From NCBI RefSeq assembly GCF_030028105.1, contig NC_092393.1, positions 59,275,121 to 59,339,120 on the forward strand: 64,000 bases of DNA. The letters are read 5' to 3'. Positions 1,221-63,234 of the stretch are shown here, one piece after another. Made by a program: the position numbers and the translations under genes. The notes below the pieces were generated by a model that had not been told where the DNA came from, did not search any database, and saw only the letters and a list, made by a program, of their open reading frames with translations. This DNA is from Mobula birostris (taxonomy: Eukaryota). Numbering within the stretch: the stretch's first letter is position 1; each line of letters starts with the position of its first letter.

Positions 1221-1514
<294 letters not shown>

Positions 1515-2195: not shown

Positions 2196-2289
2196 AAGTT
2201 TCTCAATTCCCCAATGGAATTATCCCATTGCTCTAATTTAATTCAGCATTGAATTTAAATTCCTTGCCCTTTTGTTGCAGGGATGGTGA

Positions 2290-2568
<279 letters not shown>

Positions 2569-4034: not shown

Positions 4035-4148
<114 letters not shown>

Positions 4149-8936: not shown

Positions 8937-9158
<222 letters not shown>

Positions 9159-9265
9159 TGAGTCATTTTTTCCTTTGTGATTGTTGAGCAATATTTTCAA
9201 TCTATTCTTTTTCTGTAAAATGCTGATTCAGTAACTTTGTAAATAGCTGTATATTTGTGTTCTGA

Positions 9266-9388
<123 letters not shown>

Positions 9389-9869: not shown

Positions 9870-10345
9870 TCACAAAATGCTGAAGGAACTCAGTAGGTTG
9901 GGAGGCATCTATGGAAGGGAATAAAGAGTCGACATTTTGGGCTGAGAACCTTCATCAGGACTGGAAAGGAAGGGGACAGAAGCCAGCATGAGTAGGTTGG
10001 GGAAGGAGAAGCCATACAAGCTAGAAGGTGATAGGTGAGGTGGGGGGTATATATTGAGAAGCTGGGAGGTGATAGATGGAAAAGATAAAGGGATAAAGAA
10101 GCTTCCCACTTCATCCCCCTTCCCCCACACACCTACCTTTTCCTTCACCTGGCTTCACCAATCAACATCCCTTCCCCACCCCCCACTTTATTCTGGCTTC
10201 TTCCCCCTTCCTTTCCAGTCCTGATAAAGGATCTGGGCCCGAAACATCAACTGTATATTGCGTTCCATAGCTGTTTCCTGACCTGCTGAGATCCTCCAGC
10301 ATTTTGTGTGTATCACTCTGGATTTCCAGCACCTGCAGAGTTTCT
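9870..10345. mobile_element. Inverted pair of Penelope-type short elements with decayed hammerhead cores
   Basis: Minus copy ccagtcctgatgaaggttctcagcccaaaatgtcgact near 9927-9964; plus copy cagtcctgataaaggatctgggcccgaaacatcaactg at 10216-10253. Confidence 0.8.
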
Positions 10346-10384
10346 TGGGTTTAAATTTCTGTCACCTGATAAAAAATGTCATAA

Positions 10385-10645
<261 letters not shown>

Positions 10646-12641
10646 TAGAATAAAATTTTAAAATCTTGTTGTCCATCATTGAGGACACTGTAGAGCTAAT
10701 TGAATTAGATATTAATGCATATTGGAGCCACTTCACAAATCTGTTTGTTCTGTGCAACACTTTAGTGGTTAATGATTTAGGGTGGAGAGAAATTGTAGAT
10801 TTTCAAGTCTGATTGATTCTGTATTGTCAATGAGAAAAAGATTGATGGTTTTGAATAAAAGAGAATAGTTAGCTTTATTTGTCTCATGCACATCGAAACA
10901 CAATGAAATGCGTTGTTTTGCAAAAAAAAAAACCAAGCATTTAATTATATATTGGATACTGTAACAGATAGTGTAAGGTCTTACGACACTAGCTGTAAGA
11001 TCAGGGTTCAATTCCCATTGCTGTCTGTAAGGAGTTTGCACGTTCTCACGTGGATTTCCTCGGGATGCTCTGGTTGCCTCCTACATTCTAAAGCTGTGCG
11101 GGATAGGGTTAGTGAACTATGGGAATGTTATGTTGGTGCCAGAAGTATGGTGACATTTGCAGGCACAATCTTCACTGACTTGATTTGACGCAAACAGCAC
11201 CTTTCTCTGTATGTTTTTTATATATGCCAAAGTTATTGTAAAATCTTAAGGAGGGTAATTATAATGGCAGGAACTACAAATAAGAGGAGAGGGTTCAAGT
11301 AAAGTTCAAATAATTTTAGTTATCAGCCCTATTGCTTCCTCTCTTACTAAAGTTCTGTCTGCATCTCCCAAGGCATGTTAAACATTCATTAATTATCATT
11401 TGTGTATCTAGGATGAAAAAGACTAAAACCACTGTGAGGTGTGTGGTTGGGTAAGGGATAGGGTCAGCAGACTGAGTCTGTAGAATTTAACTTGATGAAG
11501 CAGAATGTGAATTTAAACACTAACGATATGAAACCCTTGACAGTTGTCATATGGGTTGTACTTAGTAAATATACTCAGTGGCCACTGAGTGTATGTTCAT
11601 GGTCTTCTGCTGTTGTAGCCCATCCACTTCAAGGTTCAGTATATTGTGCAACATCTGCACGATGGTGCAATAAAACAAAAAAACATCCAGTGAGCGGCCG
11701 TTCTGTGGGTAAAAAACGCCTTGTTAATGAGAGAGGTCAGAGGGGAATGACCAGACGTACCAGCTGACAGGGAGGTGACAGTAAATTAAATAACTGGGAT
11801 ACAACAGTGGTGTGTGGAGAGCAGAGATGTTGTACATTCAAAGATGAATGTACGACATGTCAAACCTTGAAGTGGATGGGTTAGAGCAGCAGAAAACCAA
11901 GAACATACACTCGGGCTATCGTATGAGAGAGAGGGAAACTGATCATCTGACTACTTGGGTTTAGAACATCATTCCCATGTTGATTAGGCCCAAAGAAATG
12001 ACACCACTAAACAGTTCTGTAGAATGTAATGTGTAATGTCCTTGAATTGCCCAAGAGTGTTGTACAGCAGTGAAACATTATCAATGCTTTATCTTCCCAC
12101 ATGTTCCTTTGTGTCTTTCCATCTCCCTCAGAGATTAGATTTCATGGAGCACTAGTTAAAACTCATCATGGTCTACAATAAGCACGAGAGATTCTGCAAG
12201 TACTTAAGATCTTGCACTAGAAATTAGCTTCATTTGTCACACGTCTATCAAAACATGCAGCAAAATGTGTCATTTGCATCAATGACCAGCACAGCCCAAG
12301 CATGTGCTGGGGGCAGCCCACAAGTGTCACCAGGTTCCCGGTGCCAACCTAGCATGTCCATAACTCACTAACCCTAACCTGTACATCGTTGGTCTGTATG
12401 AGGAAACCGGAGCACCCAGAGGAAACTCGCGTGTAAGAACATACAAACTCTGTACAGTGGCAGGAATCGAACCCTGATCCATGATTACTGGCACTGAAAA
12501 GCAGTTGTGCTAACCATTATGCTACTGTGCTGCCCTGGTCATACTCTGTTTGATTTACTGAGTAGTTTATTTTTCACATTCACAATGTTAAGTCAATGTG
12601 TTTCGTAATAGATGTTGTAACGTTCTGTTCAGAAGCTGTAA

Positions 12642-12872
<231 letters not shown>

Positions 12873-12944
12873 TAAATGTGTTGAATTTTTTAGGAAGTTT
12901 AAAAGTTATCTTAACTTTTTTTTATAGTAGATAAGACTCACAGA

Positions 12945-13310
12945 ACACTACAGCACAGAAACAGGCCTTTTGGCCCATCTAGTCCATGCCGAATTATTAT
13001 CCTGCCTAGTCCCATCGACTTGCACCTGGACCCATTTCCCTCCCATCCATGAACTTATCCAAACTTCTCTTAAATGTTGAAATCAAACCCACAACTGCCT
13101 TTCTATTGCAACTTGTTTCACACTCTCACCACTCTGAGTGAAGAAATTCCCCTTCATGTTCCCTAAGAATTTCACCATTCATCCTTAACCAATGACCTCT
13201 AGTTCTAATCTCACCCAACCTCAGTGGAAAAGCCTACTTGCATTTACCCTATCTATAGCCCGCATAATTCTGTACACCTCTATCAAATCTCCCCTCAATC
13301 CTACGCTCAT
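12945..13310 (-). mobile_element. CR1 LINE 3' fragment; similar pieces at about 20505-20850 (-), 27040-27640, 28870-29270, 40960-41470, 49640-49830 and 56860-57180 (+)
   Basis: acagcacagaaacaggcc...cctctatcaaatctcccctca is the reverse complement of the CR1 3' region. Confidence 0.75.
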
Positions 13311-13544
13311 ATTGGATTGGTGGTAATTCCACTCGATTTATTTCGTGCTGTATAAATAACTACTAATGGTTACTTAACATTCCTGAACAAGTATTATTGC
13401 AAAGAGAGAAAGTTATAATGAAGTTGCTATTGTTGGGATTATGTTTGATCGACTTTTGTCTCAATATTTGTGATCTTCTGTAGAAGTGTCAGCGCTTGGC
13501 TTCATTAAGGTTTTGCCTTTTGTACCGGATGAAACTGGATGGCA

Positions 13545-13895
13545 GGGTGGAGATGCGTCTCTACCAAAGGAGGTGTAAGGCACTCCTTCCCTTCGCTAGC
13601 CAGCAAGATGTAGCACCTCTTAGCCCCCGATCAGAGTCACGTGAAGCCGTGGGAGCAGCTGCTTAGAATGGTTGCATGTGCAGCTGGTGCATATCACAAG
13701 TCCTGGTTATGCCACTGACGGGCAGATGATCTCTGAAGAGTATTGATAATGGCTGGGGTCACCTGTCTTGTAAAGACACTGCCCAGAAGAAGGCAATGGC
13801 TAACCACTCCTGTAAAAAGATTTGCCAAAAACAATCGTGGTCAGGGGGAAAACTATGATCACACACATCATATGACATGGCATGCATGTAATGAT
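13545..13895 (+). mobile_element. Short interspersed repeat with RTE/BovB-like tail; other copies at about 16205-16510 (-), 20855-22195 (+, interrupted), 26015-26400 (-), 50530-50860 (+)
   Basis: Shared ggtggagat...ctctaccaaaggaggtgtaaggc head, agaagaaggcaatggc.aaccact motif and (GAT)n tail. Confidence 0.7.
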
Positions 13896-14129
13896 GATGA
13901 TGACCAGATGAAAATCTCATCAAGTTTTACATCTTGTCCTTCGGGATGATACCCATTATAGTTTATAACCTCTGTTCTGAACAGCAAGGATTTCAATCTG
14001 AAGCCCCAATTACAAACCTCTGGACATGTTTGCTTATTTAACTGGTAGTATTTTCAATGCCTCAAAGTTATGATTTTGAGCCCTACTTTAGTAGGGCATA
14101 CAATTCCGTAGGCTAACATAGGAGGAGGT

Positions 14130-14694
14130 CTTGTACTGATCCACACTGACTGTGATCTCCCAGTAAGGAAGTTAAGGATCCAGAGGGAGAGGGAGGTGCA
14201 AAGGCCAAGGTTTTAAAGCTTGTTGATTAGTACTGAGGAGATGATGGTGTTGAACGTTGAGCTGTAATCAATAAGCAACATTCTGACATAGGTGCTGTTG
14301 TCTAGGTTCTCCAGAACTGTGTGGAGAGCCAGTGAGATTGCATCTACTGTAGACCTGCTGGCAAATTCAGCAGGTCTGGGTACTTGCTCAAGCAGAAGTT
14401 GATTTTAGCCATGACCAACCTCTCAAAGCACTTCATCACAGTAGATGTAGGTGAAAGTCATTGAGGTAGCTCGCCCTGCTTTTCTTAGGGACTGGTATGA
14501 TTGATGTCATTTTGAATTGGGTAGGAACCTCTGAGCACAGCAGTGAGAAGTTGAAGCTGTCCTTGAACACTCTAGCCAGTTGGTCGGCACGGGTTTTCAT
14601 TGCCCTGCCAAGTACACCACTGGGGCCTGACACCTTGCAAGGGTTCACCCTCTTGAAGGCTGCTCTGACATCAGCCTACAAGACGAGATCACAG
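14130..14694 (-). mobile_element. Rex1/Babar-like LINE RT fragment
   Basis: KVSGPSGVLGRAMKTRADQLARVFKDSFNFSL...IIPVPKK...LNDF resembles the N-terminus of a non-LTR RT of this clade. Confidence 0.7.
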
Positions 14695-15590
14695 GGTTAG
14701 TGCTACCATTTGGGCTGCAGTTTCCTGTTGATGCCACAGAGAGAGCTTTGATTGAGTGCCAGTCTAGTTGGATTTTTCTCAACCATTCACGTCCAAAAAG
14801 TGCTGGCCCTCCACTTTCCAATACATAAAGTTCAAACTGTTGTGTTTGGCCTCCATATGTCACCTTCACTTTCAGTTTGCCTTTGGGGGGCATTTTTTTT
14901 TTTGCCTGTGTAAGTCATTAGCATCACTGCATTCTTCTCTAATGGTATCTCAGAAAACAGTCTGTTGTAGTCAGCCTCTGGAATTATGGACAAAGGTGAC
15001 CCTGCATCCAGCTCCATTTTCAGTTTTAAACTGGACACATCTATTGTGATCCAGATGACTTTGTGATCTGCTAAAGTTATACTATGCAGTTCTAGGCATG
15101 ACGCTCTTTTGAGTGCCACATACAAGTCTATCCCTTAATGCATCAGAAAGTGCATATCCAAAGTCACAGTACTGGGAAATTTTACATAGTTCTGCAATAT
15201 ATTCAGAAATGCTTTCCTCTTTTGACTGGTTCCTTTTGTAAAATCTAAATCTCAGCTATTGCTAATGGCTTAGGGCTCAAATGATTTTGTAAAATGTCTG
15301 GCTGCTGGCTTTTCAGGGGTTACTAAGTGCAATACGAGAGTGTATGTTTTTGGGCCCATTAAGCTAAGAAATGTAGGGGCTTTCTTTTACTCCATGTTAT
15401 TCACCTTCATTAGCATTATCAAATTAATCAACTTTCCCAACTGATGCCATTGCAAATAATTTCAGTACGTTTCTCACTATTACTCATGTGTCTTTTGGCT
15501 TTCTCATGCTGTTTAGCTCTTGCTGTTTCGTCCCATAACCGTCGGTGCAGTTTGTGATAAAGTTCATACTCGTCGCCAATTTGTTGTGTC
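14695..15590 (-). mobile_element. Gypsy LTR retrotransposon remnant (PBS and aspartic protease)
   Basis: Frameshifted KMELDAGSPLSII...ALFGREWL retropepsin at 14760-15070; PBS-like TGGCGACGAG on the minus strand at 15569-15578. Confidence 0.75.
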
Positions 15591-17289
15591 TGTGCACAGC
15601 TACATATCGGCGGGGGAGTGGGACTAAATGGGAGAATGGATCAGGTCATGATAAAATGGCGGAGCAGATTCAATGGGCCGAATAGCCGACTTCTGCTCCT
15701 TTGTCTCATGGTTACCAGTTGCTGTAGGGATTCCCAAGGTGTAGTGTTATTCTACCTTTCAAAGTGTGCATAAAAGACATAGAGCTCATCAAGAAGTGAA
15801 TCATCACTGCCATTTATGCTGTCAGGTTTCACCTACTAGAAAGGACTGGCATGTAAATCCTCCCACAGCTCTCATACACCTGATTATGTCTCTAACTTCA
15901 CCTCTCACAAAGTTCTGCTTCCTTTTGTTATGGTGATGCAAGTTCCATTTCAGCAGAGGAAACTATTTAAAATATAATGGAAATAGTTAGAATTTTAAAG
16001 TTGAAGGTGCTGTCTAGGGTAGTATTTAAAGCAGAAAGCAATATTGCCTAAAAGTACTGTTCCCTTTCTTCTGCATATGTGCACACACACATGGACATGC
16101 CTCCCGAGTAGTTTTAAACGTTGGAAGCACATAAGGTCATGCCATTTACACTCTTCCTTGTTCAAAGTACCTATACTACCCATATCCATATTCATTCATT
16201 ATGTATGACGTGGGCGATCATGGCCTTGACCATGATTGTTCTTGGCAAATTTTTCTACAGAATTGGTTTGCCCTTCTGGGCACTGTCTTTACAAGATGGG
16301 TGACCCTGGCCATTATCAATGCTCTTCAGAGATGGTCTGCCTGGTGACAGTAATCACATAACCAGGAATTGTGTTATGCACCAGCTGCTCACATGACTCT
16401 GATTGGGGGGCTAAGCAGGTACTACACCTTGCCCAACGGTGACCTACAGGTTAGTGGAGGAAATGAGCAACTTGCACCTCCTTTGGTAGAGACCTATCTC
16501 CACTCCACCACCCCACCATATCCATATACTACCTTGAGATTCCTGCAAGAAAATGAACCTCAGTGTAACTTATACGTACTTTGATAATAAATTTACTTTG
16601 AACTTTGTAGTAATGAACCTCTGTTGTCGACTGAACCCAACAAATTTAAATTTGTCCTTTGATGCTAAAACTCCAGAAACTCTTTAAATATTCTGTTTTC
16701 CATTTTCATGGAGGTACTTCTTACTTACCATCTCTAGATTAAAAATATTCAAATACTTTAATCTCTAGAGTTCCCTCCAATCACCTTTTGGATTATTTAG
16801 TTTTGGTGCCTTCTCATGTTAGGAATTGGTATTACATCAGTTCAAATCCATCTGTTTTGTGTATCGAAATAGAAATAAGGCTCCAGTAATCTGGCACCAT
16901 TGGGGCTTTGGTCGTGCCGTGTTTCCAGACTATTGGATGTTAACAGAACACAGTTGCGACTGTTGCTTACATGTTGTGAACTTGTATAATAAATTTTCCA
17001 GTGGACTATCTGGATTTCTGAACAATCAGGCTGGATTATTCAAGTTTTTACTACTAGAGTTTGGCCAATAAATAGCAGTAGAGGTGCCCGATAATGGGAA
17101 TGCCTAACGCTCTGTATTTTAACAGTATACTCGGTAGATCTCCCAGGAATATCAAATTAACACTTTTACCACTAATATGAAATAAACCATTACTTGGGAA
17201 CAGCATGTGGCCATTCTACCTTCTTGAACATATTTTTTCATTTGGTGGCTCATATGGAACCCAATTACAGAGAGTCAGTGTTAAGTTTT

Positions 17290-17920
17290 CCAGTTTGGGA
17301 TGTAATCCTGAGACTGTAAAAGGCACTGATGATGTCTCACTTAGAGTGTTATGAGCAGTTTTGGGTTTCTTGTTTAAGAATGGATGTGTTGACAGTGGAG
17401 AATGTTCAAAGGAGGTTCAAGACAATGATTCCAGGAATGAAAAGGTTATCATATGAGCAACCATTGAAGAGGGCTTTGAGCCTGTACTGGCCGGACGTTA
17501 GAAGAATAATGATGGATCTCATTGAAATAATGGTGGATCTAATCTCTATCGAATGTTGAAAGGCCTTGATAGGGTAGATGTGAAGAGGATGTTTCCTTTG
17601 TTGGGGAAATCCAGGACCAGAAGGCACAGTCTCAAAATAGAGGGACATCCATTTAGTGCAGAGATGAGGAGGAATTTCTTTAGCCAGAGGGTGGTGAATC
17701 TGTGGAATTTGTTGCCAGAGGCGGCTGTGGAGGCTAGGTCACTGGGTACATTTAAGACAGAGGTTGATAGATTCTTGATTAGTAAGAGTGCTGAAGGGTT
17801 ACGGGAAGAAGACAGGACAATGGGGTTGAGAAGGAAATGGACAAGCCATGATCAAATAGTGGAGAAGACTTGATGGACTGAATGGCCTAATTCTGCTCCT
17901 ATGCCTTATGATCTTGTATC
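17290..17920 (+). mobile_element. CR1 LINE 3' fragment
   Basis: LKGLDRVDVKRMFPLLGKSRTRRHSLKI...RVVNLWN, homologous to the end of the 5390-8017 ORF2. Confidence 0.85.
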
Positions 17921-17929
17921 CTGTTTTAG

Positions 17930-18124
<195 letters not shown>

Positions 18125-34000: not shown

Positions 34001-34631
34001 TGAAAAATATTTAAAATTTTTATAGTCTAATTGAAAATATCTTGAAAGCTTGGCACTGGTGTTCAAAGTCATGAGTTTTTCCCCTTGTACTTAGTTGTAA
34101 CTACTTTTATTCCATGAGAATATTGGTGGTCTAATGGGATGGACCTCATCTCCAGAAAATGATATTTAACTAATTTTCCATCGTTTGAAAAGATTGTTAA
34201 AAAGCAAGGCAGAAGATAAATCTATCAATTAGTTTCAAGTCGGCAGTGAAATTTCTTTCTGTGACTTTATCAGAATTCAGGTTGTAATTTTTAGTTATCC
34301 AGGTGAATGTGAAACATCTGTCATGTTCTGTTGCATGATTTCAGTCTCATCAATGTCAGAAATGTACAGACTCTTCCAAACCCACTGCACCATGAGCAAA
34401 ATGCTGAAGAAACTCAGCAAGTCAGCCAGCATCAATGGAGGGAAATGGGCAGGTTGAGGATCTTCATCACGTCCTGTCTGTTTCTCTCCATCGATACTGC
34501 CTGTCCTCCTGAGACCCTCCAGAATTTTGTATGCTGCTCCAGATTTCCAGTATCTGCAGTCTCTTGCATCTCCAATATGCCATGACCTTACTTTTACATT
34601 CTTAATTTTATTTAATCCTAAAGCTTGATGG

Positions 34632-38581: not shown

Positions 38582-40196
38582 CAGTGGCATGCAAAAGTTT
38601 GGGCACCCCGGTCAAAATTTCTGTTACTGTGAACAGCTAAGCGAGTAAAAGATGACCTGATTTCCAAAAGGCATAAAGTTAAAGATGACACATTTCTTTA
38701 ATATTTTAAGCAAGATTACTTTTTTTATTTCCATCTTTTACAGTTTCAAAATAGCAAAAAAGGAAAAGGGCCCAAAGCAAAAGTTTGGGCACCCTGCATG
38801 GTCAGTAGCACCCCCTTTGGCAAATATCACAGCTTGTAAACGCTTTCTGTAGCCAGCTAAGAGTCTTTCAATTCTTGTTTGTGGGATTTTCGCCCATTCT
38901 TCCTTGCAAAAGGCTTCTAGTTCTATCAGATTCTTGGGCCGTCTTGCATGCACTGCTCTTTTGAGGTCTGTCCACAGATTTTCGATGATGCTTAGGTCGG
39001 GGGACTGTGAGGGCCATGGCAAAACCTTCAGCTTGCATCTCTTGAGGTAGTCCATTGTGGATTTTGAGGTGCGTTTAGGATCATTATCCTGTTGTAGAAG
39101 CCATCCTCTTTTCATCTTCAGCTTTTTTACAGATGGTGTGATGTTTGCTTCCAGAATTTGCTGGTCTTTAATTGAATTCATTCTTCCTTCTACCAGTGAA
39201 ATGTTCCCCATGCTACTGGCTGCAACACAAGCCCAAAGCATGATCGATCCACCCCCGTGCTTAGCAGTTGGAGAGGGGTTCTTTTCATGAAATCCTGCAC
39301 CCTTTTTTCTCCAAACATACCTTTGCTCATTGCGGCCAAAAAGTTCTATTTTAACTTCATCAGTCCACAGGACTTCTTTCCCAAATGCATCAGGCTTGTT
39401 TAGATGTTCCTTTGCAAACTTCTGATGCTGTATTTTGTGGTGAGGACACAGGAAAGGTTTTCTTCTGATGACTCTTCCATGAAGGTCATATTTGTGCAGG
39501 TGTCACTGCACAGTAGAACAGTGCACCACCACTCCAGAGTCTACTAAATCTTCTTGAAGGTCTTTTGCAGTCAAAGGGGGGTTTTCATTTGCCTTTCTAG
39601 CAATCCTATGAGCAGTTCTCTCGGAAAGTTTTCTTGGTCTTCCAGACCTCAACTTGACCTCCACCATTCCTGTTAACTGCCATTTCTTAATTACATTATG
39701 AACTGAGGAAATGGCTGCCTGAAAACACTTTGCTATCTTCTTATAGCCTTCTCCTGCTTTGTGGGCATCATTTATTTTAATTTTCAGAGTGCTAGGCAGC
39801 TGCTTAGAGGAGCCCATGGCTGCTGATTGTTGGGACAAGGTTTGAGGAGTCAGGGTACTTATAAAGCTTTGAAATTTGCATCACCTGGCCTTTCCTAATG
39901 ATGACTGTGAACAAGCCATAGCCCTAACAAACTAATTAAGGTCTGAGACCTTGGTAAAAGTTATCTGAGAGCTCAAATCTGTTGGGATGCCCAAACTTTT
40001 GTATGGTGCTCCTTTCCTTTTTTTCACTCTAAAATTGTACAAAACAAAAATAATACACTAATCTTGCTTAAAATGTTGAAAAGAATGTTTTATCTTTAAC
40101 TTTATGACTTTTGGAGATCAGTTCATCTTTTACTCACTTAACTATTCACAGTAACAGAAATTTTGACCGGGGTGCCCAAACTTTTGCATGCCACTG
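38582..40196 (-). mobile_element. Full-length Tc1-like DNA transposon (IR/DR type), transposase inactivated
   Basis: TA|CAGTGGCATGCAAAAGTTTGGGCACCCC...GGGGTGCCCAAACTTTTGCATGCCACTG|TA; TIRs of roughly 200 bp with internal repeat AAAGTTTGGGCACCC; transposase pieces 39503-39838 (HTH, GRPRK) and 38738-39241 (QQDND...SPDLSIIENLW) separated by a stop. Confidence 0.96.
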
Positions 40197-45419: not shown

Positions 45420-45990
45420 ATGAGCTGCTGGAGGAACTCAGTAGGTCAGGTAGCATCTGTGGAGAGAAATGGGCAGTGACTGTTTCAGATTAAGTTCCTC
45501 CTATAGTTTTTTTTTAGCAACACCCACAAAATGCTGGAGGAACTCAGCAGGTCAGGCAGCATCTATGGAGGGGAATAAACACCTATCAGAATAGTTCTCC
45601 AGCCCTTTGCCTTCCCCACCCACCTGGCTTCACCTATCACCTTCCAACTAGCCTCCTCCCCTCCACTCACCTTTTTATTCTGGCATCTTCCCCCTTCCTT
45701 CTCAGTCCTGAAGAAGGGTCTCGGCTGGAAACATTGACTATGTATTAATTTCCATAGATGCTGCCTGACCTGCTGAGTTCCTCCAGCATTTTGTGCGTGT
45801 TGCTTTGGAATAAACAATTGATGTTTTGGGCCGAGACCCTTCATCAGGACTGGAAAGGGAGGGAGAAGAGGCCAGAATAAGAAGGTGGGTGGGGGTGGAT
45901 GGGAGGTGTATAAAATGGCAGGTGATAGGTGGGTGGGTGGGTGAGTGAGTTTTTTTTAAATTGCAGATTCTCCCATCTGTAGTCTTGTGT
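45420..45990. mobile_element. Cluster of Penelope-type short elements in both orientations
   Basis: Hammerhead-like cores at about 45703-45740 (+) and 45815-45853 (-); repeated gatgctgcctgacctgctgagttcctccagc motif. Confidence 0.78.
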
Positions 45991-51199: not shown

Positions 51200-51695
51200 T
51201 CTGTGGTTGCCAGTGCGATCATGTTTGCTGTTGTGTGCTGGGGCAGCAGGCTGAGGGTAGCAGACGCCAACAGAATCAACAAACTCATTCGTAAGGCCAG
51301 TGATGTTGTGGGGATGGAACTGGACTCTCTCACGGTGATGTCTGAAAAGAGGATGCAGTCTAAGGTGCATGCCATCTTAGTCAATGTCTCCCATCCACTA
51401 CATAATGGACTGGGTGGGCACAGGAGTACATTCAGCCAGAGACTCATTCCACCGAGATGCAACACAGAGCGTCATTGGAGGTCATTCCTGCCTGTGGCCA
51501 TCAAACTTTACAACTCCTCCCTGGGAGGGTCGGACACCCTGAGCCAATAGGCTGGTCCTGGACTTATTTCCTGGCATAATTTGCATATTGCTATTCAACT
51601 ATTTATGGTTTTATTACTACTTAATTATTTATGGTGCAACTGTAACAAAAACCAATTTCCCCCGGGATCAATGACTATGACTATGACTATGACTA
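51200..51695 (+). mobile_element. Rex1/Babar-like LINE 3' end with (ATGACT)n tail
   Basis: VASAIMFAVVCWG...SHPLH...RSFLPVAIKLYN, typical of the post-RT C-terminus; tail atgactatgactatgactatgact. Confidence 0.75.
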
Positions 51696-54089
51696 AAATG
51701 CCGGAGGAACTCAGCAGGCCAGGAAGCACCTATGGAACAAAGTATAGTTGTCCAATCCTCCAGCATTTTGTGTGTGTCGCTTGGATTTCCAGCACCGGCA
51801 GACTTTCTCTTGTTTGGGACAGACCAGTACAGTGTAGGAAGTAACCCTTCGGCCCACTGAGTCTGTGCTAACCATGATCTCATTCCAAACTAATCCCTCC
51901 TGCCTGCACACAGTCGACATGATTCAAAATTCAAGACTGTTTCTTGTCATTTTTCAGTACACAGGTGTAAAGGAGAACAAAATGGTTGCTACTCCAGATC
52001 TCATGAGCATTAAAAAAAAAGCATAAAGAGCACAATAAATATAAAAGCAATCCCATAACCTGCAATGTACAAGTAACTGTTGAGTGAGTCCATATATCCA
52101 TAAGGTTCATGAGGTTCATAAGTTAAGATATATGGTAACCTTCACCTCACTTAGTCAGTTTTTCGATCGTGAGTTATCTTCCCTACAACTCACTGTCTCC
52201 TGACTCTCATGGTGCTGAAACCAGGACAAACATAGTCCAGTACAGGTTCTTCGGCCCTTCCCTCTCACGTAACCCTCCATTTTTATATCATCCATGTGTC
52301 TAAGAGTTTCTTAAATGCCCCCTAATGTATCTGCCTCTACCAGCACCCCAGTGCATTCTGTGCACCCACCACCCGCTGTGTAAAAAAGCTACCCCTGACA
52401 TCCCCCTGTACTTCTCCCCAATTACCTAACTGCCTGCTGAGACCTTTGACAATATTTCTCACCATCCGCAATTCCACCGGTTTTTCTGTCATCGGTCCAT
52501 CTATATTTCCATCCAGGGTGCCACGGTGGCGTAGCAGTCAGTGCAGCGCTGTTACAGCTGGGGGCCTCGGAGTTCAGAGTTCAATTCTGACATCATCTGT
52601 AAGGATATCCTCCCCGTGGAATGCGTGTGTTTCCTCCAAGTGCTCCAGTTTCCTCCTACAGTCCAAATACATACCGGTTGGTAGGGTAATTGGTCTTTTT
52701 AACATGTCCCATGATTAGGGACAGGTTAAATCAGTGGGTTGCTGGGCAGCGCAGCTCTATGCTGTATCCAGTGGAGGTCCTAACATTGGTCCCTGGGGAA
52801 CACCACAGGTCACAGACTTCCAGTCAGAACAACACACGTCCTCCACTCCCCTGTCTTCTCTAGCCAAACCAGTTTTGAATCCCTCCATAGTTTATCATCT
52901 TTTGGATCAACCTGCCAGCCCACTTTAGATTCCTTGCCGTTATCATATCAGAGCATCTGTCCTGGGACCAGTACTTAAGCGCTGTAGTAAAGAAGGCACA
53001 ACAGTGCTTCTCCTTTCTGAGAAGTTTGCATAGAATCAACATGTGACCAAAAGCTTTGACGGAGTTCTACAGAGACACAGTGGGGAGTACCCTGACTTTG
53101 AAGAGGCAGACATGAGTGCAAAGCACACAAAATGTTGGCATGCAGTGCTCAAGATTTCCAGACTCTCTCGTTCAAAGTTCAAAGTAAATTCATTATCAAA
53201 GAACATGTATGCCACCGTATACTGTCCTGGGCTTTCATGTTCAAGTTTAATTGTCATTCAACCACACATGATCATCCATGACCACAGCCAAACAAAACCC
53301 AGTCATTCACAGCACAAGGTGCATATAGTAAATACAAAGAAACATAATAGAACCAATAAAAGTCTGACTTTGTGTGCAGATTAGCAAGAGACCAACAAAT
53401 AGTGCAAATACAAAAAAAAAGGGGAAAAAAATCTTTAATTTATATAGAGATACAGTGGGAACAAGCCCTTCCAGCCCAATGAACCACAATACCCAAAGGC
53501 TCACCTATTTATTCCAATTTACACTTAACCTACTAGCTGGTACGCCTTTGGACTGTGGGAGGAAACTGAAGCACCCGGAGGAAACCCATGCAGTCATGGG
53601 AAGGACGTAAAAACTCCTTAAGGGCAGCACCAGGAATTGAACTCCGAAATCTGGAACATCTCCAGCTGTAACAGTGTTGCTCTAAGCACTATACCACCAT
53701 GGCACCCGAACAAATAAATTAGCAAAAAATTACTGAGAACATGAGTTGTAGAGTCCTTGAAAGTGAGCCCATACATTATGTCTATAACATGAGCGTTGCA
53801 ACTGTTCAGCTGCAGAAATGAACCCTTGTATTTTTCTTAAAGGGAAGCCAGTTTCATTTTGCCCCCTAAAGAGTTAACTGAAACTGAACCTTGTGCTGAC
53901 AGAACAAGGAAGTTCTTTGCCAAGCTGAGCTGAGAGTCTGGTTTTAAAGTGGGTGTTGCTGTCACACATACACCTGCACGCCAGAGCTGGTCCTTCTCGA
54001 GAATAAGCTCCGTGATTCTGGGAAGCAGAAACGGCCTTGGGAGAATCTTTGTCTGCCTCTTGATCATCACACTCCATCACCACACCACC

Positions 54090-54158
54090 ATGACTTCTGA
54101 AGAAAATGGCAAAGACCTGATCTTCGAAGGGTACTTGAAAAAGCAAAAAGACAAGATG
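54090..54158 (+). CDS. PH-domain protein, first coding exon
   Basis: ccaccATGA Kozak-like start; MTSEENGKDLIFEGYLKKQKDKM|gtgagc; xxEGYLxK is the PH beta-1 signature; phase 0. Confidence 0.85.
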
Positions 54159-54421
54159 GTGAGCTCATTCTCTACTCAATGCTTTTTATTTACCTGGAGG
54201 GTCTTTTACGAATGAGGAACAAAGGTACTTAAATATTAATTTTCCGAAGAAGTAACAATCCTAATTCAAAGTCTCAGTCTGAAACATTGGGTGTTTATTC
54301 CTCCCCATAGACGCTGCCTGACCTGCTGAGTTCCTCCAGCAATTTTTGTGTGTGGCTCTGGATTTCTAGTATCTGCAGAAACCCTTGTGTTAACAATTGT
54401 GATTTCTTTCTTTCTCTGCAG

Positions 54422-54499
54422 AAGTTTGCTTGGGCAAAGTATTGGTTTAGGCTCCAAAACACCACTTTATTCTTCTTCACCGATAAACAATGTGAGGCA
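54422..54499 (+). CDS. PH-domain protein, coding exon 2
   Basis: ttctctgcag|AAG...GCA|gtaagt; KFAWAKYWFRLQNTTLFFFTDKQCEA (W..YWF.L....L.FF, PH beta-2/3); phase 0-0. Confidence 0.88.
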
Positions 54500-54587
54500 G
54501 TAAGTAATCTTATTTAAAAGATCTCAACTCCTTTATTGTCAAGTATTTTTGAATGTCCCAAATAACAATACTGTTTTTTTTTCCTAG

Positions 54588-54620
54588 TGCCATCTCCGAG
54601 GGCAATATTACATCTACATG
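54588..54620 (+). CDS. PH-domain protein, 33-nt coding exon 3
   Basis: tttttcctag|TGC...ATG|gtgagc; CHLRGQYYIYM (PH beta-4 'xxG.I.L' position); phase 0-0. Confidence 0.82.
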
Positions 54621-54679
54621 GTGAGCCATGTTTCAAATGTTTAATGTAGTATTTCATTTCATGTAGTTCAGTCAACTCT

Positions 54680-54965
54680 GTAGAGTAGCGGTTACCATAA
54701 TGCTTCATTGCGCCAGCGATTGGGAGATCGGGGTTCAATTCCTGCCACTGTCTGTAAGGAGTTTGTACGTACCCCCTGTGACCATGTGGGTTTCCTCCAG
54801 GTGCTCCAGTTTCCTCCCACAGTCCAAAGATGTCAGGGTTCGTAAGTTGTAAGTGCGCTATGTTGGCGACACTTGTGGGCTTCCCTGAGCACAATTCTTG
54901 GCCACTGACGAAAAACGACCCATTTCACTGTATATTTCAATGTTTCAATGAGTAAGACCAATCTT
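54680..54965 (+). mobile_element. tRNA-derived V-SINE (HE1-like); representative of more than 15 copies, e.g. about 4250-4575, 8420-8730, 10960-11220, 12220-12530, 19245-19490, 22620-22820, 31940-32220, 44590-44840, 46260-46455, 52520-52770, 53445-53705, 57720-57990, 58980-59190, 59700-59970, 61260-61600
   Basis: A/B-box head (gtagcggtta...gggttcaattcc) followed by the V-domain core gtttgtacgt...gtgggtttcctccaggtgctccagtttcctcccacagtccaaaga. Confidence 0.8.
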
Positions 54966-55968
54966 TAAATCTTAAAACTCCGTGTTTAAAAGAAAAATCT
55001 GCCCTCATATCTCATTAAAACTTACCCCCTCTCATCTCAAATGCATATCCTCTGGTACTTGACATTCCAGCTGGGAAAAAGAATCTAAGCCTCTCATAAT
55101 CTTATAAACAACTAACAGATTTCCCCTCAGTGTCTGAAAACAACACAACTCACAACTTTGTCCAACCTCTCCGAATCAGAATCAGGTTTTATCACTGGGA
55201 TACAGAAGGTCGTAAAATGTGTTATTTTGTGGTAGCAGTGCAGTGGAATTCACTACGAATTGCTCCAAGTTAAAATAAGAATGTTTTATATGTATATTTT
55301 TTAAAAAGTGCAAAAAGAGAGCAAAATTGTAAGTTAGTGTTCATGGACTGTTCAGAAAACTGAGAGGAAGAAATTGTTCCTAAGTCGTTGAGGATGTGTC
55401 TCCTGTACCACCTCCTGATTGTAGTTATAGCTCATGCCCTCTAATCCAGTCAGCATTCTGGTAGAACTTTTCTTCAGCCTTTCCAAAGCCCTCACACCCG
55501 TCCTGTAACAGGGCGACCAGAAATATGCAGAGTATCCGCTCACAAAGCACATGCGCAAATGCACACAGGCACACACCCAGAGCACACACACAAAACGCTG
55601 GAGGAACTCAGCAGGCCAGGCAGCATCTATGGAGAAGAATAAACAGAAGATGCTTTGGGCCGAGACCCTTCTCCGGGACCTGATGAAGAGCCTCGGCCCG
55701 AAACATCGACAGTTTCTACGATACTCACCATGTTTCCCTATATCACTTGGCATACTGAGTATCCAGGTTCACAGTACGGAACCATTCCCCATTCATTCCC
55801 AGTATCACGTGCCCACTAACTCCTCTTCCACACCCACCCTTCTGCCCCCACATTCTCCAAGCAGCCACTACAAAATAAGAACAATTAAAAGAGGCCAATT
55901 AACCCAGCAACACACATCAAAGTTGCTGGTGAACAGAGCAGGCCAGGCAGCATCTCTGGGAAGAAGTA

Positions 55969-56006
55969 CAGTCGACGTTTCGAGCCGAGACCCTTCGTCA
56001 GGACTA
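55969..56006 (-). ncRNA. Minimal type-I hammerhead ribozyme motif
   Basis: Minus strand tagtc-CTGACGA-a-gggtctcggctc-GAAACGTC-gactg: complete core, stem I tagtc/gactg, 4-bp stem II, palindromic ACGT in place of stem III. Confidence 0.75.
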
Positions 56007-56351
56007 ACTGAAGGAAGAGTTAGTAAGAGATTTGAAAGTGGGGGGGGAGGGGAGATCCAAAATGATAGGAGAAGGCAGGAGGGGGAGGGATGGAGCCAAG
56101 AGCTGGACAGGTGATTGGCAAAAGGGGATATGAGAGGATCATGGGACAGGAGGCCTAGGGAGAAAGAAAAGGGGGAGGGGGGAAAAAAAAACAGAGGATG
56201 GACAAGGGGTATCTCGCTATCCTCTCATACCCGTTTTGCCAATCACCTGTCCAGCTCTTGGTTCCATCCCTCCCCCTCCTGTCTTCTCCTATCATTTCGG
56301 ATCTCCCCTTCCCCTCCCACTTTCAAATCTCTTACTAGCTCTTCTTTCAGT

Positions 56352-56389
56352 TAGTCCTGACGAAGGGTCTCGGCCTGAAACGTCAACTG
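56352..56389 (+). ncRNA. Minimal type-I hammerhead ribozyme motif (one stem-I mismatch)
   Basis: tagtc-CTGACGA-a-gggtctcggcct-GAAACGTC-aactg. Confidence 0.65.
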
Positions 56390-56754
56390 TACCTCTTCCT
56401 AGAGATGCTGCGTTCACCAGCAACTTTGATGTGTGTTGCTTGAACTTCCAGCATCTGCAGATTTCCTCGTGCTGGCGAATTAACCCAGCAAGTTGGATAT
56501 TGGGAGGATGCGGGAGGAAACCCACAGGGTCACAGGGAGAGTGTACGACCTCTGTACAGACAGCAACAGAGGTCAGGATCATACTCACTTGCTGGATCTC
56601 TGTGCCAGTGCAGCCGTACCCACCCAGGGAGGAGTGGGAAGTGCTGTGATCTGGAATTCCCCAGGTATTAAGTTCCCAATTTCAGCCTCAGCAACAGTTA
56701 CAGGTGAATATCCTTTTGTACTTTAATTCCTCTTTTGAAACAAATACTTCCAAG

Positions 56755-57510
56755 AATTTCTTCAGCCTCAGGAGGTCAGAGTTGGTTACAAACTTCACTA
56801 CAAGGTTCAATTGCCATTTATCTTCTGAGATGTGGCTAGATAGGGGGTGACAAAAGGCACAGGCCGAGTGGACAGCCAGAGGCTCTTTCCCAGGGTGGAA
56901 TTGGCTAATATCAAGGGGGCATCATTTTAAGGCGATTGAAGGAAAGTATAGGGGGATGTCAGAGGTAAGTTCTTTACACAGAGAGTGGTGAGTGTGGGAG
57001 GGACACACTGGCAGGGGCGTTGTAGAGGCAGATACATTAGGGACATTCTAGAGACCCTTAGATAGGCACATGGATGATAGAAAAATGGGGTGTTATGTGG
57101 AAGGGAATGGTTAGATTGAATAGGTTGGAAGGTTGGCACAACATTGTGGGCTGGAGAGCCTGTACTGTGTTACACTGTTCAAGGTTCAAAGACAATTTGT
57201 TTTGTTTACATCTGGTCTCGGCCCAAAACATCGACTCTTTATTCCTTTCCGTAGACGCTGCCTGACCTGCCGAGTTCCTCCATCATTTTGTGTGTGTTGT
57301 TCTGGATTTCTTGTGTGTACATTTTGTTTTGGATGGGACTTTTCACTACTAAGGATTAGCCATTTCCATCCTGGGGGAAAAGTCTCTGGCTGTCCACTTG
57401 GTCTGTGCCTTTTATCTCCCCTATCTAGTCACCTCTCAGAAGATAAATGCCGATCGAACCTCGTAGTGAAGTTTGATAAAGCTGCAAAGAACGAACTTAG
57501 CCTTGAGAAT
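56755..57510. repeat. Diverged inverted duplication (about 56755-56900 vs 57362-57510)
   Basis: aaacttcactacaaggttcaattgccatttatcttctgaga...gtggacagccagag is reverse-complementary to ctctggctgtccac...tctcagaagataaatgccgatcgaacctcgtagtgaagttt. Confidence 0.8.
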
Positions 57511-58049
57511 GAACAGCTCCTTCTGTTTTCTACAATTGTTTTGCCTGTGTAGAATTATGTTCGGTGCTTCCAAAGCGTACAGGTCTGACTTCCAACGGTT
57601 TGCTGCAAGAAAATGCTTTAAACTTCAGGGACGTGATGTGAAACACACACAAAATGCTGGAGGAACTCGGCAAGTCAGGCAGTATCTATGGAGGGAAATA
57701 ATCATTTAATTCAGAGACTGGCATAGAGTTTAGCGTAGCCATCACGGGTTAATTCCTGCTGCTGCCTGTAAGGAGTTTGTACATTCTCCCAGCGGCAACA
57801 TGGGTTTCCTCTCATGTTCTAAAGACATATGGATTAGGGTGAGTGAGTTGTGGGCATGCTATGTTGGTTCTGGAAGTATGGCGACTCTTGTGGGCTGCCC
57901 CCAGCATGTCCTTGGATTGTGTTGGTTGTTAACGCAAACGACACATTTCACTGAATGCTTTGATGTATATGTGACAAATGAAGTTCATCTTTCACTTTTT
58001 AAAATCTTTTGCGCTGTACCTGCTGCAATGATTGGAGTAGTGATTGTAT

Positions 58050-58592
58050 TTCAACAGCTTGTAAAGCACCTGGGGGTGTGGACAAGGGGCACTCCTGGGC
58101 CTCCGATCAAAGTGGCTTTTGAGGAGGGCACAGAGGTTCACTAGAATGATGCTGGGATTGAAAGAGTTAATGCTCAAGAAGTGTTTGATGCTTCTGGGAA
58201 TGAAGGAGATCTCTTTGAAACCTACCGAATATGGAAAGGCCTAGACAGAGTGGATGTGGAAATGATGTTTCCTACAGTGGGGGAATCTAAGACCAGAGGG
58301 CACAGCCTCAGAATGGAGGGACATCCATTTAGAACAGAGATGAGGAGGAATTTCTTTAGCCTTCTTTAGGCTGGTGAATTTATGGAATTCATCGCCACAG
58401 ATGGCTGTGGAGGCCAAGTCAGTGGGTACATTTAAAGCAGAGGTTGATAGGTTCTAGATTAATCAGGATGTTAAGGGATACAGGGAGAAGGCAGGAGAAT
58501 GGGGTTGGGAGGGATAATAAATCAGCCACGATGGAATAGTGGAGCAGACTGGAGTGGTTTATCGAGTCTGCTCTTATGTTTTATGGTTTATG
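58050..58592 (+). mobile_element. CR1 LINE 3' fragment
   Basis: GDLFETYRIWKGLDRVDVEMMFP...RGHSLRMEGHPFRTEMRRNFFS; tail ttatggtttatggt. Confidence 0.85.
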
Positions 58593-60304
58593 GTACTCTG
58601 AGCTTGACAGAAAAGTAGGTGGGGAGAGATGGGGAGGAGCTGGTTGTGGGAAAGGAGCTTCTGCCCTGATGCAAGGCGTGGGAACCCGGAGAGGAAAAGC
58701 TCCTCAGGGCAACTTCAGACAAGTCAGGCAGTGACAGCGCAGGAAGAACAGGTCACAGAGTGACTCACTGAACAGGTACATGACCTGCTGAGCTGTCCTT
58801 TTTGTTCCCTGTCTATTGTGAGCTCCCTGTTTCAACCACATTTACGTCACAGTGAGCAACACACCATTCTGTTGTCATCCCCAGCCCGTTTCACAACCGA
58901 ATGAGGTCATGGTCTGCTGGGATTTTAGTTCCTCCCGTCGGCTTCAGACCCAAATTGCTTGCATTTATTTATGATTGTTATTGAGATGCAGTGTGGAATA
59001 GGCCCTTCTGGCCCTCGAGCCATGCTGCCCAGCGACCCCCAAATTATCCGAGCATAATCGCAGGATAATTTACAATCAGTAATTAACTTACCAACCAGTA
59101 CATCTTTAGACTGTGGGAGGAAACCACAGCACCCGGAGGAAACCCACATGGTCACGGGGAGAGTGTACAAACCCCTTACGGGCAGTGGTGGGAGGTCTCT
59201 CTCCCTCTCAGTTCGAAACTCACTGACTGAGGGAGCGTCTACTCCTGTTTGTCAACACGAGAGATTCTGCAGAGGCTGGAAATCCAGAGTAACACACACA
59301 AGATGCTGGAGGAACTCAGCAGGTCGGGCAGCATCTGTGGAAGTGAATAGGAAGAGGGCAAAAGCCAGAATAAAAGGATGGGGTGGGGGTGGACATGAAC
59401 CAGCAGGTCATAGGTGATTCCAGGTGGGTGGGGGAAGTGGGAATGTTGTGAGAAGCTGGAAGTTGACAACAGAGGAGGGAAAGGGAATCCAATGAAGGGT
59501 CTCGGCCTGAAACATCGACTATTTAGTCATTTCCATAAACTCCGCCTGCCCTGCCCTGTTCCTCCGGCTTTTTGTGTGCGTTCCTCCTATTTGTGTCAGA
59601 GAATATCTGAGAAACAGAAAAAAAGAGAAGTACTTTTACAGGTACTTCCTACGTTTCCTTCCGAACAACCCACTCAGATTCTACAGTTAAACGTTCACAC
59701 GGGAGCGGCACGGTTGCGCGCGCACAGTTATCGATTCCTGCCGCTCCCTGTAATCCCCCCCGTGGCCACGAAGGTTTCTGCCGGACGCCCCGGTTTACTC
59801 CCACAGTCCAAAGACGTACGGGTCAGGGTCAGTAAGTTGTGGGCGTGCTATGTTGGCGCAGGAAGTGTGGCGACACTTGCGGGCTGCCTAGCCCAATCCG
59901 CGCTGACTAGGTTTGACACAAAAATGACACGTTCCACTGAGCATTTTGATGTACGTGTGACAAATAAATAAAGACATGTTAAACCCTCCCAACAGTGAAA
60001 TATTTTCTCTCCCTCCAAGCCCCAGATCAATAACAGTATCTGTGACTGTGTTTCTCTACCCATTCCCTCTGCCTGTCCATTTCTTTACCCTTATTCATCT
60101 GACCCCTTCACTCCTTCTCATTCCCCTCCCCACCCTCGCGACATGTCCGTTATCCATGCCTTCCTCCCTCAGGGTTCCCATCTCCTTCCCTACCTCCATG
60201 GTCCACTGTCCTCTCCGATCAGATTCCACCATGTTCATCCCTTTGCATCTTCCATCTATCACCTTCCAGTTTCCCACATCATTCCCACTTTCCTCCCCCC
60301 ACCT

Positions 60305-61262
60305 ACACATTCCACCATCACCCCCCATTCCATCATCTCCCATTCCATTACCACCCCATTCCACCCCCCACATTCCATCACCCCCATTCCACCCCCCACA
60401 TTCCATCACCCCCATTCCATCACCCCACATTCCGTCACCCCCCACATTCCATCATCTCCCATTCCACCCCCCACATTCCATCACCCCCATTCCACCCCCC
60501 ACATTCCATATCCCCCATTCCACCCCCCACATTCCATCACCCCCCACATTCCATCACCCCCCATTCCACCCCCCACATTCCATCACCCCCATTCCATCCC
60601 CCACATTCCATCACCCCATTCCACTCCCACATTCCATCACCCCCATTCCACCCCCCACATTCCATCATCTCCCATTCCATCACCCCGCATTCCATCACCC
60701 CGCATTCCATCACCCCCCATTCCACCACTCCCCATTCCACCACTCCCCATTCCACCACTCCCCACATTCCACCACTCCCCATTCCACCACTCCCATTCCA
60801 TCACTCCCCACATTCCACCACTCCCCATTCCATCACTCCCCACATTCCACCACTCCCCATTCCATCACTCCCCACATTCCACCACTCCCCATTCCACCCC
60901 ACATTCCACCACTCCCCATTCCACCACTCCCCATTCCATCACCCGCATTCCGTCACCCCCCACATTCCGTCATCTCCCATTCCATCACCCCCCCATTCCA
61001 CCACTCCCCATTCCATCACTCCCCACATTCCACCACTCCCCATTCCACCCCACATTCCACCACTCCCCATTCCACCACTCCCCATTCCACCACTCCCCAT
61101 TCCATCACCCGCATTCCGTCACCCCCCACATTCCGTCATCTCCCATTCCATCACCCCCCCATTCCACCACCCCATTCCATCCCCCCACATTCCAACATCC
61201 CCCCACATTCCACCAACCCCCTACATTCCATCACCCCCCCCCATTCCACCATCACCCCTCCA
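60305..61262. repeat. C-rich tandem repeat built on CATTCCA(T/C)CAC(T/C)CCC units
   Basis: About 950 bp of roughly 12-17-nt units, each containing CATTCC; produces the spurious Pro/His-rich ORFs. Confidence 0.95.
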
Positions 61263-61684
61263 TTTGTCACATGTACATCGAAACATCAAAACATTCAGTG
61301 AAATGTGTTGTTTATGTCAACGACCAACAGCATCCGGGGACGTGCGGGGGGCAGCCCAGTACACTTAACGAAACGCCCCAGTCGGGGTTTAACTCCTGCC
61401 GCTGTTTGTAAGGGGGTTTCCTCCAGGTGCTGCAGTTTCCTCCCACCTTTCAAAAAAGCACAGGTAAGGGTGAGTAAGTTGGTGCTGGAAGTGTGGTGAC
61501 ACTTGTGGGCTGCCCCCAGCACATCTTCAGGCTGTGTTGGGCATTGACGCAAACACTGCATTTCATGATATATCTCTATATAAGTGTGACAAATAAACCT
61601 AAGGAAAGATCTTTATCTTTAAGATTCACCAATTACAAATGTAAGTATTTAATTCTAAGCAGGTGACATTTTGTCATCTCCGGT

Positions 61685-63132
61685 CATCCCAACAAGAGAG
61701 TGTGTGATACTGAGTCCGCTATTAGGGACTGAGACGGGGCAGGTGACAGAAGTTTGTGTCAGGAAACACTTTGCACCTAGTGATCACAATGCCATTAGTT
61801 TCAAAGTTAATATGCAAACAGATAGGCCTGGTCCAAGGGTTGAGATTGTAAATTGGAGAAAGGCCAATTTTGATGGTATCAGAAATTATCTGGCAAGTGT
61901 GGGTTGGGGCACATTATTTTCTGGCACAGTGCTTTTCTTGGCAAGAGCCAGGCCTTCAGAAGTGAAATTTGAGAGTACAAAGCTTGTATGTGCCTGTCAG
62001 AGTAAAAGTTAGTAAATTGGATTAGACATTGGCTCTGTGGGAGAAGCCAGAGAGTAGTAGTAGGTGGTTGCCTCTCTGACTGGAGGCCGGTGACTAATGG
62101 TGTGCCACAGAGATCGGTGCTGGGGCCATTGATGGCTGTCATCCATATCAATGATCTGGATGATAATGTGGTTCACTGTATCAGCAGATTTGTGGGTGAC
62201 ACCAAGATTGGTGGTGTAGTGGACGGTAAGGAAGACTATCATGGTTTGGACCTGGACCTGGATCTGGACCCATTGGAAAAATGGGCTGAAAAATGGCAAA
62301 TGGAATTTAATGCAGACAAACGCGCGATGTTGTACTTTGGGAGGACCAGCCATGATAGGTCTCACACAGTGAATGGTAGGGCGCTGAGGAGTGCAATGGA
62401 ACAGAGGGATCTGGGAATCTAGGAATCTAGGTCCATAGTCATTGAAAGTAAAGAAAGCTTTCAGCACATTGGTCTCATAAATCAAAGTATTGAGTACAGG
62501 AGATGGGATGCTATGTTGAAATTTATAAGACATTGATGAGGCCTAATTTTGAGTATTCTGTACAGATTTGGTCACCTACCTACAGGAAAGATGTAAATAA
62601 GATTGAAAAAGTACAGAGAAAATTCACAAGGATGGTGCCAGATCTGGAGAACTTGAGTTAGTAAGGAAAGGTTGAATAGGTTAGGACTTTATTTCTTGGA
62701 ACGTAGAAGCTTGAGAGATGTGATAGAGGTATACAAAATTATGAGGGGTACAGATGGGCTAAATGTAAGTAGGTTTTTTTCACTGAGGAAGGGTGGGACT
62801 ACAGCCAGAAGTCATGGGTTAAAGGTGAAAGATGAGAGGTTTAAGGGGAACATAGGTTAAGGGTGAAAGGTGAGAGGTTTAAGGGGAACATGAGGGGAAA
62901 CTTCTTCACTCAGGGTCGTCAGAGTGTGGAATGAGCTGGCAGCGCTAGTGGTGTGTGCGGGCTCGATTTCGATGTTTAAGAAGTTTGGACAGGTACATCG
63001 ATGGTAGGGGTATGGAGGGCTATTGTCCTGATGCAGGTTAATGGGAGTAGGCTGTTTAAATGGCTCGGCACAGACTCGATGGGCTGAAAGGCCTGTTTCT
63101 GTGCTGTACTTTTCTATGACTCTCTAACTCTA
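61685..63132 (+). mobile_element. Degenerate, internally deleted CR1 LINE ending just upstream of PH-gene exon 4
   Basis: SDHNAISF, GVPQRSVLGP, WQMEFNADK, DVIEVYKI segments; tail gtgctgtacttttctatgactctctaactcta. Confidence 0.88.
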
Positions 63133-63150
63133 TAATTCACTCAAAAACAG

Positions 63151-63234
63151 GTTCAGTCGGTAAGAGAAAAGGAAGCCAGGAACCACGAGTATCTGTTTGA
63201 GATGGTCATGAAGAATGGGAAGAGAAAGGTGCTG
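63151..63234 (+). CDS. PH-domain protein, coding exon 4; gene continues beyond the window
   Basis: aaaacag|GTT...GTG CTG|gtaagt; VQSVREKEARNHEYLFEMVMKNGKRKVL (PH beta-5 to beta-7, F.I....R motif); phase 0-0. Confidence 0.82.

Follow-up and report, generated by a model that had tools for sequence, protein, structure and literature searches.

Head-to-head ends of a probable Penelope-like retrotransposon bearing minimal hammerhead motifs in an intron of Mobula birostris

Analysis of a 64-kb stretch of Mobula birostris DNA (the window, by which we mean the whole stretch analysed) revealed, in an intron of a PH-domain gene, an insertion that with good confidence is best explained as a real integration with target-site duplication (TSD) of two head-to-head copies of a probable Penelope end, now likely dead. 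The inserted sequence is very likely the pseudo-LTR end of an endonuclease-bearing Penelope-like element (PLE), as judged by analogy with published elements, and this copy is in all probability inactive. The features of the locus are listed in Table 1.

Table 1. Coordinates of the host gene, the insertion and its parts, in window positions
Feature	Position	Strand	Basis
Host PH-domain gene, first four exons (54090-54158, 54422-54499, 54588-54620, 63151-63234)	54090..63234	+	open frame, all AG/GT
TSD, left copy, 14 bp	55897..55910	.	sequence; single copy at empty sites
Left arm, 5'-truncated family end with short, tail-less 3' terminus facing left	55911..56209	-	arm alignment; 5' limit approximate
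Minimal type-I hammerhead, intact, antisense to host gene	55969..56006	-	sequence and fold; features as in PMC4209133
Head-to-head junction, 9 nt, without clear palindrome	56210..56218	.	sequence
Right arm, more strongly 5'-truncated, sense to host gene	56219..56440	+	arm alignment
Minimal type-I hammerhead, core intact, two stem changes	56352..56389	+	sequence and fold
One-sided tail, 37 nt (42 nt with the 5-nt overlap assigned to the target)	56441..56477	+	arm alignment
TSD, right copy	56478..56491	.	sequence and empty sites
Older dispersed repeat hosting the insertion	56492..56570, left continuation from ~55882	-	paralogous pieces and inverted matches

The element is bounded on both sides by the direct repeat aattaacccagcaa, the two copies of which agree at 14/14 positions; an exact 14-mer was shared in just 37 of 20,000 random pairs of 30-nt segments spaced 580 nt apart. 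Comparison of contigs with 55727-55925 revealed the empty site in three of four sequencing runs (X10, X11 and X15). The empty-site contigs are anchored in the left flank over 184, 83 and 126 nt, respectively, starting upstream of the points where the paralogous pieces start, and carry one copy of the 14-mer followed directly by the sequence of 56492 onward. Counted by hand, the letters after the 14-mer are identical to that sequence at 28/30 positions in X10 and 26/30 in X11, and X15, with one change inside the 14-mer, is identical over the next 19 letters. The run X14 gave solely paralogous pieces of the older target repeat when compared with the left flank. As three other organisms carry the empty site, the insertion is real and its 14-bp repeat truly arose by duplication of the target site; the clean duplication reported in the preliminary description is thus upheld by both the 14/14 match and the comparison with empty sites in related species. 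The TSD starts with AATT in an AT-rich target, and the older repeat around it is presumably SINE-like. By arm alignment, the five terminal nucleotides of the left TSD copy (55906-55910) also match the element's own sequence at that place.

Contig comparison also brackets the age of the insertion. Organism A shows no differences from the window across 945 nt, in four pieces, and its contigs span the right junction. Organism B does likewise in X9, with 36 nt inside the element against 30 nt in X5, and at the left junction reaches 20-23 nt into the element, below the 31-nt rule for bridging; in X5 it differs from the window at 23 of 1089 nt, that is, by about 2%. The empty-site organism C differs at 19/278 and 23/~392 positions, its flanks being about 6-7% apart from those of the window. 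The insertion predates the split of organisms A and B and is absent from three other organisms. It is younger than the neighbouring copies of its family, yet shows no recent activity. The earlier view of a young, recently mobile element therefore holds in part: the insertion is better preserved than its neighbours, but recent mobility is weakened because a second organism, about 2% divergent, also has it and because its arms differ at 12 of 216 positions (5.6%).

Alignment of the arms over these 216 columns yielded, besides the 12 substitutions, two 1-nt gaps and one 12-nt gap, the last being a deletion from the right arm that follows 56411 at a repeated TGCTGC. Read in the sense orientation, nine of the 12 differences are C/T, two are G/A and one is a transversion; no ADAR scar was seen in the arms. 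The arms are unequal, as the right one extends 37-42 nt further at its 3' end and the left one about 70 nt further at its 5' end. Contigs of the family cross 56139 to 56182 in the left-arm orientation, with high depth up to 56214. The right-arm tail stops at the long 3' terminus of the family, and loose ends past 56471 (in X1 and X5) have about six further letters in common before they become heterogeneous.

The head-to-head truncated copies, the one-sided tail of 37-42 nt and the TSD agree with published Penelope-type anatomy, so that the type assigned in the preliminary description is supported. Canonical PLEs combine an inverted 5'-truncated copy with a one-sided 30-40-bp tail (PMC8557442, Craig et al. 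2021). Similar to the insertion units of endonuclease-bearing (EN+) PLEs (Adineta Pen2a_Av, PMC3846280; PMC8557442), the present unit has an inverted, 5'-truncated neighbour copy placed head to head, carries a tail of about that size on one side only, is enclosed as a whole by a TSD, and is inserted into another repeat. In contrast to the units described in PMC3846280, no ORF lies between the repeats, the junction has no palindrome, and the TSD measures 14 bp instead of the 8-10 bp of the Adineta Penelopes, among which the head-to-head arrangement is the commonest. As in Poseidon of Anolis carolinensis (PAc; Frangieh et al. 2024, PMC11167929), the hammerhead lies upstream of two reverse transcription (RT) start points that define the tail, the target is AT-rich and both strands appear to have been extended. 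The ORF of PAc begins within the hammerhead, whereas no such ORF start was found here, and initiation by PAc needs no homology, compared with a 5-nt match at one junction here (PMC11167929).

We infer the Penelope origin from this anatomy, because the defining feature, an ORF for a telomerase-related RT and a GIY-YIG endonuclease, was not linked to the family. Short protein motifs revealed no RT or GIY-YIG ORF in the six frames of the window, and Pfam gave no PLE domain in 13 chosen ORFs and exons, out of 762 window ORFs of at least 40 aa. Pattern scans of viral and metagenome contigs yielded 0 loci. Searches for proteins joining the motif to RT/EN domains gave two motif matches in 645 candidates, without such a domain, then 0 of 9 and the same 2 of 3. 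The family is placed in rays because two predicted Mobula proteins contain the translated motif. A literature search on the family in sharks or rays, or on two-strand priming, returned no matching title, a title-level result that is no proof of absence from print.

Based on the two arms, we propose that the insertion arose by two-strand priming, which we consider probable; slightly less probable, though still favoured, is the full account, in which it records how a dimeric Penelope protein carried out target-primed reverse transcription on both strands, with nicks 14 nt apart, tail and short starts, 5-nt pairing and uncleaved RNA. In this scheme, the element protein would nick both DNA strands at that spacing, and each 3' end would prime reverse transcription on element RNA. 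The right cDNA would start at the long (tail) site and the left one at the short site 37-42 nt upstream, with left priming perhaps aided by five nucleotides of pairing. Both cDNAs would stop early and would then be joined head to head. The templates were likely uncleaved, because each arm continues across the cut site of its hammerhead. In addition, the arms were likely copied separately, neither being a plain fold-back of the other, because each has family sequence that the other lacks. The Anolis PLE protein, a predicted dimer, cleaves and extends both strands and starts reverse transcription at two tail-defining sites, and it uses uncleaved RNA, hammerhead cleavage being dispensable (PMC11167929). 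The five target nucleotides matching the short end of the element exist in the empty site (4/5 in X15), a hint of primer pairing, which is not required in vitro.

The copies in the window can be compared with this scheme. Their 3' ends are bimodal: of the 28 pieces, the long point accounts for 8 and the short zone for 16 (including one at the window edge), with 2 further pieces ending between them and 2 internally. Among six clear head-to-head pairs, five combine a short end with a long or intermediate one, the sixth has short ends on both sides and no pair has two long ends, and a recognisable TSD (15 nt, 2 mismatches) was present in one of the five other pairs. Arm lengths and junctions vary between window pairs and among genomic joints. 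The inverted arm might also have been made by self-priming or fold-back from a single template, the tail being left by endonuclease resolution. Self-priming has been proposed for Adineta head-to-head structures (PMC3846280), and the arms belong to the same subfamily, at a divergence that neutral decay could yield, as the flanks differ by a similar amount from those of organism C. However, the fold-back model rests on junction palindromes (PMC3846280), whereas the arms here lie about 79 nt apart, 70 of them family sequence oriented as the left arm, and the tail is on the right arm only. We therefore regard fold-back as unlikely, though of some weight.

Far less probable is a non-autonomous, palindromic, retrozyme- or MITE-like unit, mobile as a whole and excised from transcripts by its hammerheads. 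The lack of an ORF, the clean TSD and the two intact cores would suit such a unit, and animal non-LTR retrozymes, which are argued to be PLE derivatives, resemble the element in being non-coding, PLE-related and equipped with a type-I hammerhead (bioRxiv 10.64898/2026.07.22.740005). These retrozymes are defined as head-to-tail tandems with one ribozyme per unit, however, while the element here is an inverted pair that would give each transcript one sense core together with its complement (bioRxiv 10.64898/2026.07.22.740005). Mobility of the whole unit is also at odds with the differing arm lengths and junctions, and with the cut site being spanned uncut in both arms.

Both arms contain CUGACGA, an extra A, a 4-bp stem II, GAAA, the palindrome ACGU and a GUC triplet, with cores at 55977-56001 (-) and 56357-56381 (+), confirming the earlier reading of one full hammerhead core per strand and arm. 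The 25-nt core motif matches the window eight times at up to three mismatches, compared with 0.00 expected. Positions are numbered by the hammerhead convention, to which their roles are tied. In the minus copy, stem I (56006-56002/55973-55969; five pairs, one of them U-G) is fully closed and is followed by CUGACGA (56001-55995), the extra A (55994), stem II (55993-55990/55985-55982, with one added G-U), GAAA (55981-55978) and the ACGU palindrome; the predicted cut falls after C 55974. In the plus copy, with a predicted cut after C 56384, C11.1 is changed to U at 56376, which turns G10.1-C11.1 into G-U, and G1.1 is changed to A at 56385, which leaves the innermost stem I pair as a C-A mismatch. 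CpG decay is a familiar mutation pattern, and both stem changes are of this type. The preliminary description had stem I closing the motif, which is true of the minus copy and fails in the plus copy at its innermost pair.

The motifs agree with the minimal hammerheads (min-HHRs) of PLEs (Cervera and De la Pena 2014, PMC4209133) in being of type I, in having no helix III and a palindromic 15.2-16.2, and in the extra nucleotide after position 9, the G10.1-C11.1 pair and the 5-bp helix I. All of the min-HHR features (CUGANGA, GAAA-NUH, extra nucleotide after 9, G10.1-C11.1, palindromic 15.2-16.2) are present in the minus copy, whose G10.1-C11.1 pair is replaced by G10.1-U11.1 in the plus copy. 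The description of a minimal, dimer-type hammerhead with stem III reduced to ACGU therefore matches the published features. Helix II has 4 bp here compared with 7-8 bp in the Schistosoma min-HHR, and dual motifs on opposite strands, 100-700 bp apart, are described for PLEs; sharks and rays are not named among the min-HHR hosts in the available part of the same paper (PMC4209133). Identification as hammerheads is based on the core consensus and these published features. Rfam gave no hammerhead family, either at the gathering threshold or with E relaxed to 10 (24 matches), so that the Infernal-type check suggested in the preliminary description went against it. The Rfam miRNA and snoRNA matches are hairpin artefacts, below their own thresholds.

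Folding of 55850-56540 as the plus strand gave 224 inter-arm pairs and a predicted energy of -476 kcal/mol. In this model, 94% of the plus-strand motif bases are paired to the left arm, and 97% of those of the minus copy are paired in the opposite transcript. The probabilities of stems I and II are about 0 on the plus strand in the whole-element fold, and that of stem II is about 0 on the minus strand too. As a monomer, the sense copy would adopt the hammerhead fold with a probability of about 2e-5, its stem I being near 0 even without the partner arm. For both lone monomers a rod is favoured, in which the core bases GACG pair with CGUC, and the monomer folding z-scores (-0.05 to -1.15) were without significance. 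Equilibrium folding takes no account of proteins, and the Anolis hammerhead is protein-assisted (PMC11167929). The hammerheads are predicted to be passengers, paired to the other arm and unfolded in the transcript of either strand.

The element lies in intron 3 of the host gene, with the right-arm hammerhead as the sense copy. The placement in an intron of a PH gene is supported by four exons in open frame on the plus strand, the Pfam PH match of exon 2 being weak (E=0.018, below the curated cut-off). It had been suggested that the sense copy could affect pre-mRNA processing; as self-cleavage this finds no support, the sense copy being damaged, having no tandem partner and being predicted to lie in a duplex of about 220 bp. 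Cleavage of dimers needs a tandem sense partner (review), and of all arrangements an inverted pair gives dimer-dependent ribozymes the smallest chance to cut. Cleavage of the host pre-mRNA is predicted to be unlikely, because an inverted pair cannot provide such a partner. A sense hammerhead that cuts the pre-mRNA nonetheless, by trans-dimers or with the help of protein, and is kept for regulation, is most improbable. Such a role would draw on the sense orientation, the intact core nucleotides, the retention of the insertion in two organisms and the domesticated intronic hammerheads known in amniotes (PMC6155905). It is opposed by the loss of the innermost stem I pair and of G10.1-C11.1, by the poor predicted fold of the monomer, and by the left arm, the complement of the sense copy, being transcribed earlier. 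In addition, min-HHRs are described as not cleaving as monomers and cleaving little as dimers (PMC4209133), the insertion is missing in three related organisms, and other sense-strand pieces of the family share intron 3.

The insertion might instead act independently of cleavage, either as a long hairpin open to A-to-I editing or as a cryptic 3' splice site before stem I, which we consider improbable, if less so than cleavage. The predicted inter-arm pairing would suit a hairpin effect. A pyrimidine tract with CAG ends one base before stem I (56330-56351 (+), 56007-56028 (-)), which may be where a retained intron has its 3' splice site; in the Drosophila virilis Penelope, the intron runs up to the 5' end of helix I (PMC4209133). 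Of the two predicted Mobula proteins, both of which translate the motif in sense, one begins at the codon spanning that AG. However, only these two proteins were found, and the boundary could equally be that of a genomic copy truncated there; moreover, the acceptor would be buried inside the hairpin, and such head-to-head pairs are common in the window. A left-arm TACTAAC was considered as a branch point and set aside, as the family majority reads G or T there.

The element belongs to a large repeat family, with 28 pieces in 64 kb as detected with a profile made from the window copies, so that the notion of a distinct non-coding ribozyme element gives way to one of at least 28 family pieces. 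In three large runs, between 73,119 and 179,870 contigs per run match a 1.8-kb stretch, a depth that does not equal copy number. Ten window pieces have a full core, of which five keep the conserved bases and only the element's two keep the palindrome as well. At 15.2-16.2 the older copies read CA in 9/10, TG in 1/10 and the palindromic CG in 0/10, a skewed set of decay products. Covariation of stems I and II across the ten decayed copies, proposed earlier as a check, was not seen: 0/9 pairs were changed on both sides against a shuffled mean of 1.6, with little power, and the absence of doubly changed pairs fits decay in this small sample. Core position 7 seemed to covary with 16.2, the two being C-G in young copies and U-A in the majority of older copies, but this was discounted, as CpG decay gives the same picture; genomic loose ends show both CpG decay products at 7/16.2.

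Among the older head-to-head pairs, that at 9859-10365 is tailed only at its right end and has a candidate TSD of 15 nt with 2 mismatches. Pairs of the older subfamily at 34395-34561, 45516-45810, 51695-51812, 59254-59586 and 55577-55715 show no convincing TSDs. Among the best 15 joints of a longer list (1630 more), nine fall at the front edge of stem I (56349-56356, 56004-56017), and seven of these nine start at 56004-56017, the corresponding edge in the left arm. A large number of genomic copies consist of tiny head-to-head pairs from the stem I edge, spread across several bases and not at the single base after the AG. Joints at this edge, beside the acceptor-like AG, may mark the start of a shorter template RNA.

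Other features of the window were also observed. Upstream of the PH gene, exons at ~1300-18100 (+) match Pfam EF_assoc_2 at E=3e-19 and belong to what we take to be a mitochondrial Rho GTPase (Miro/RHOT); an assembly gap (run of N) lies within this gene at ~2027-2195. An 882-codon open frame at 5369-8014 (+) resembles a LINE endonuclease/RT in sequence, with many shorter LINE-like fragments elsewhere, and two frames at 38741-39880 (-) resemble, as we presume, a Tc1/mariner transposase. Intron 3 also contains a long, degenerate, strongly C-skewed tandem repeat (~60300-61250) and an unrelated inverted pair (56789-56891 and 57374-57475) with arms of 58 and 48 nt at 85-90% identity, which is probably an old element resembling a DNA transposon, with insertions that came later.

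The locus follows the pattern already described and is ordinary; as one among a great many copies it has little weight by itself, and its value is that of a clean, datable case of Penelope-like integration. To the question of how Penelope-like elements integrate, it adds an empty site verified in three organisms and bounds on its age (common to two, absent in three). If two-strand priming is true, the copies in sharks and rays would give the nick spacing, the choice of start on each strand and the use of homology statistically.
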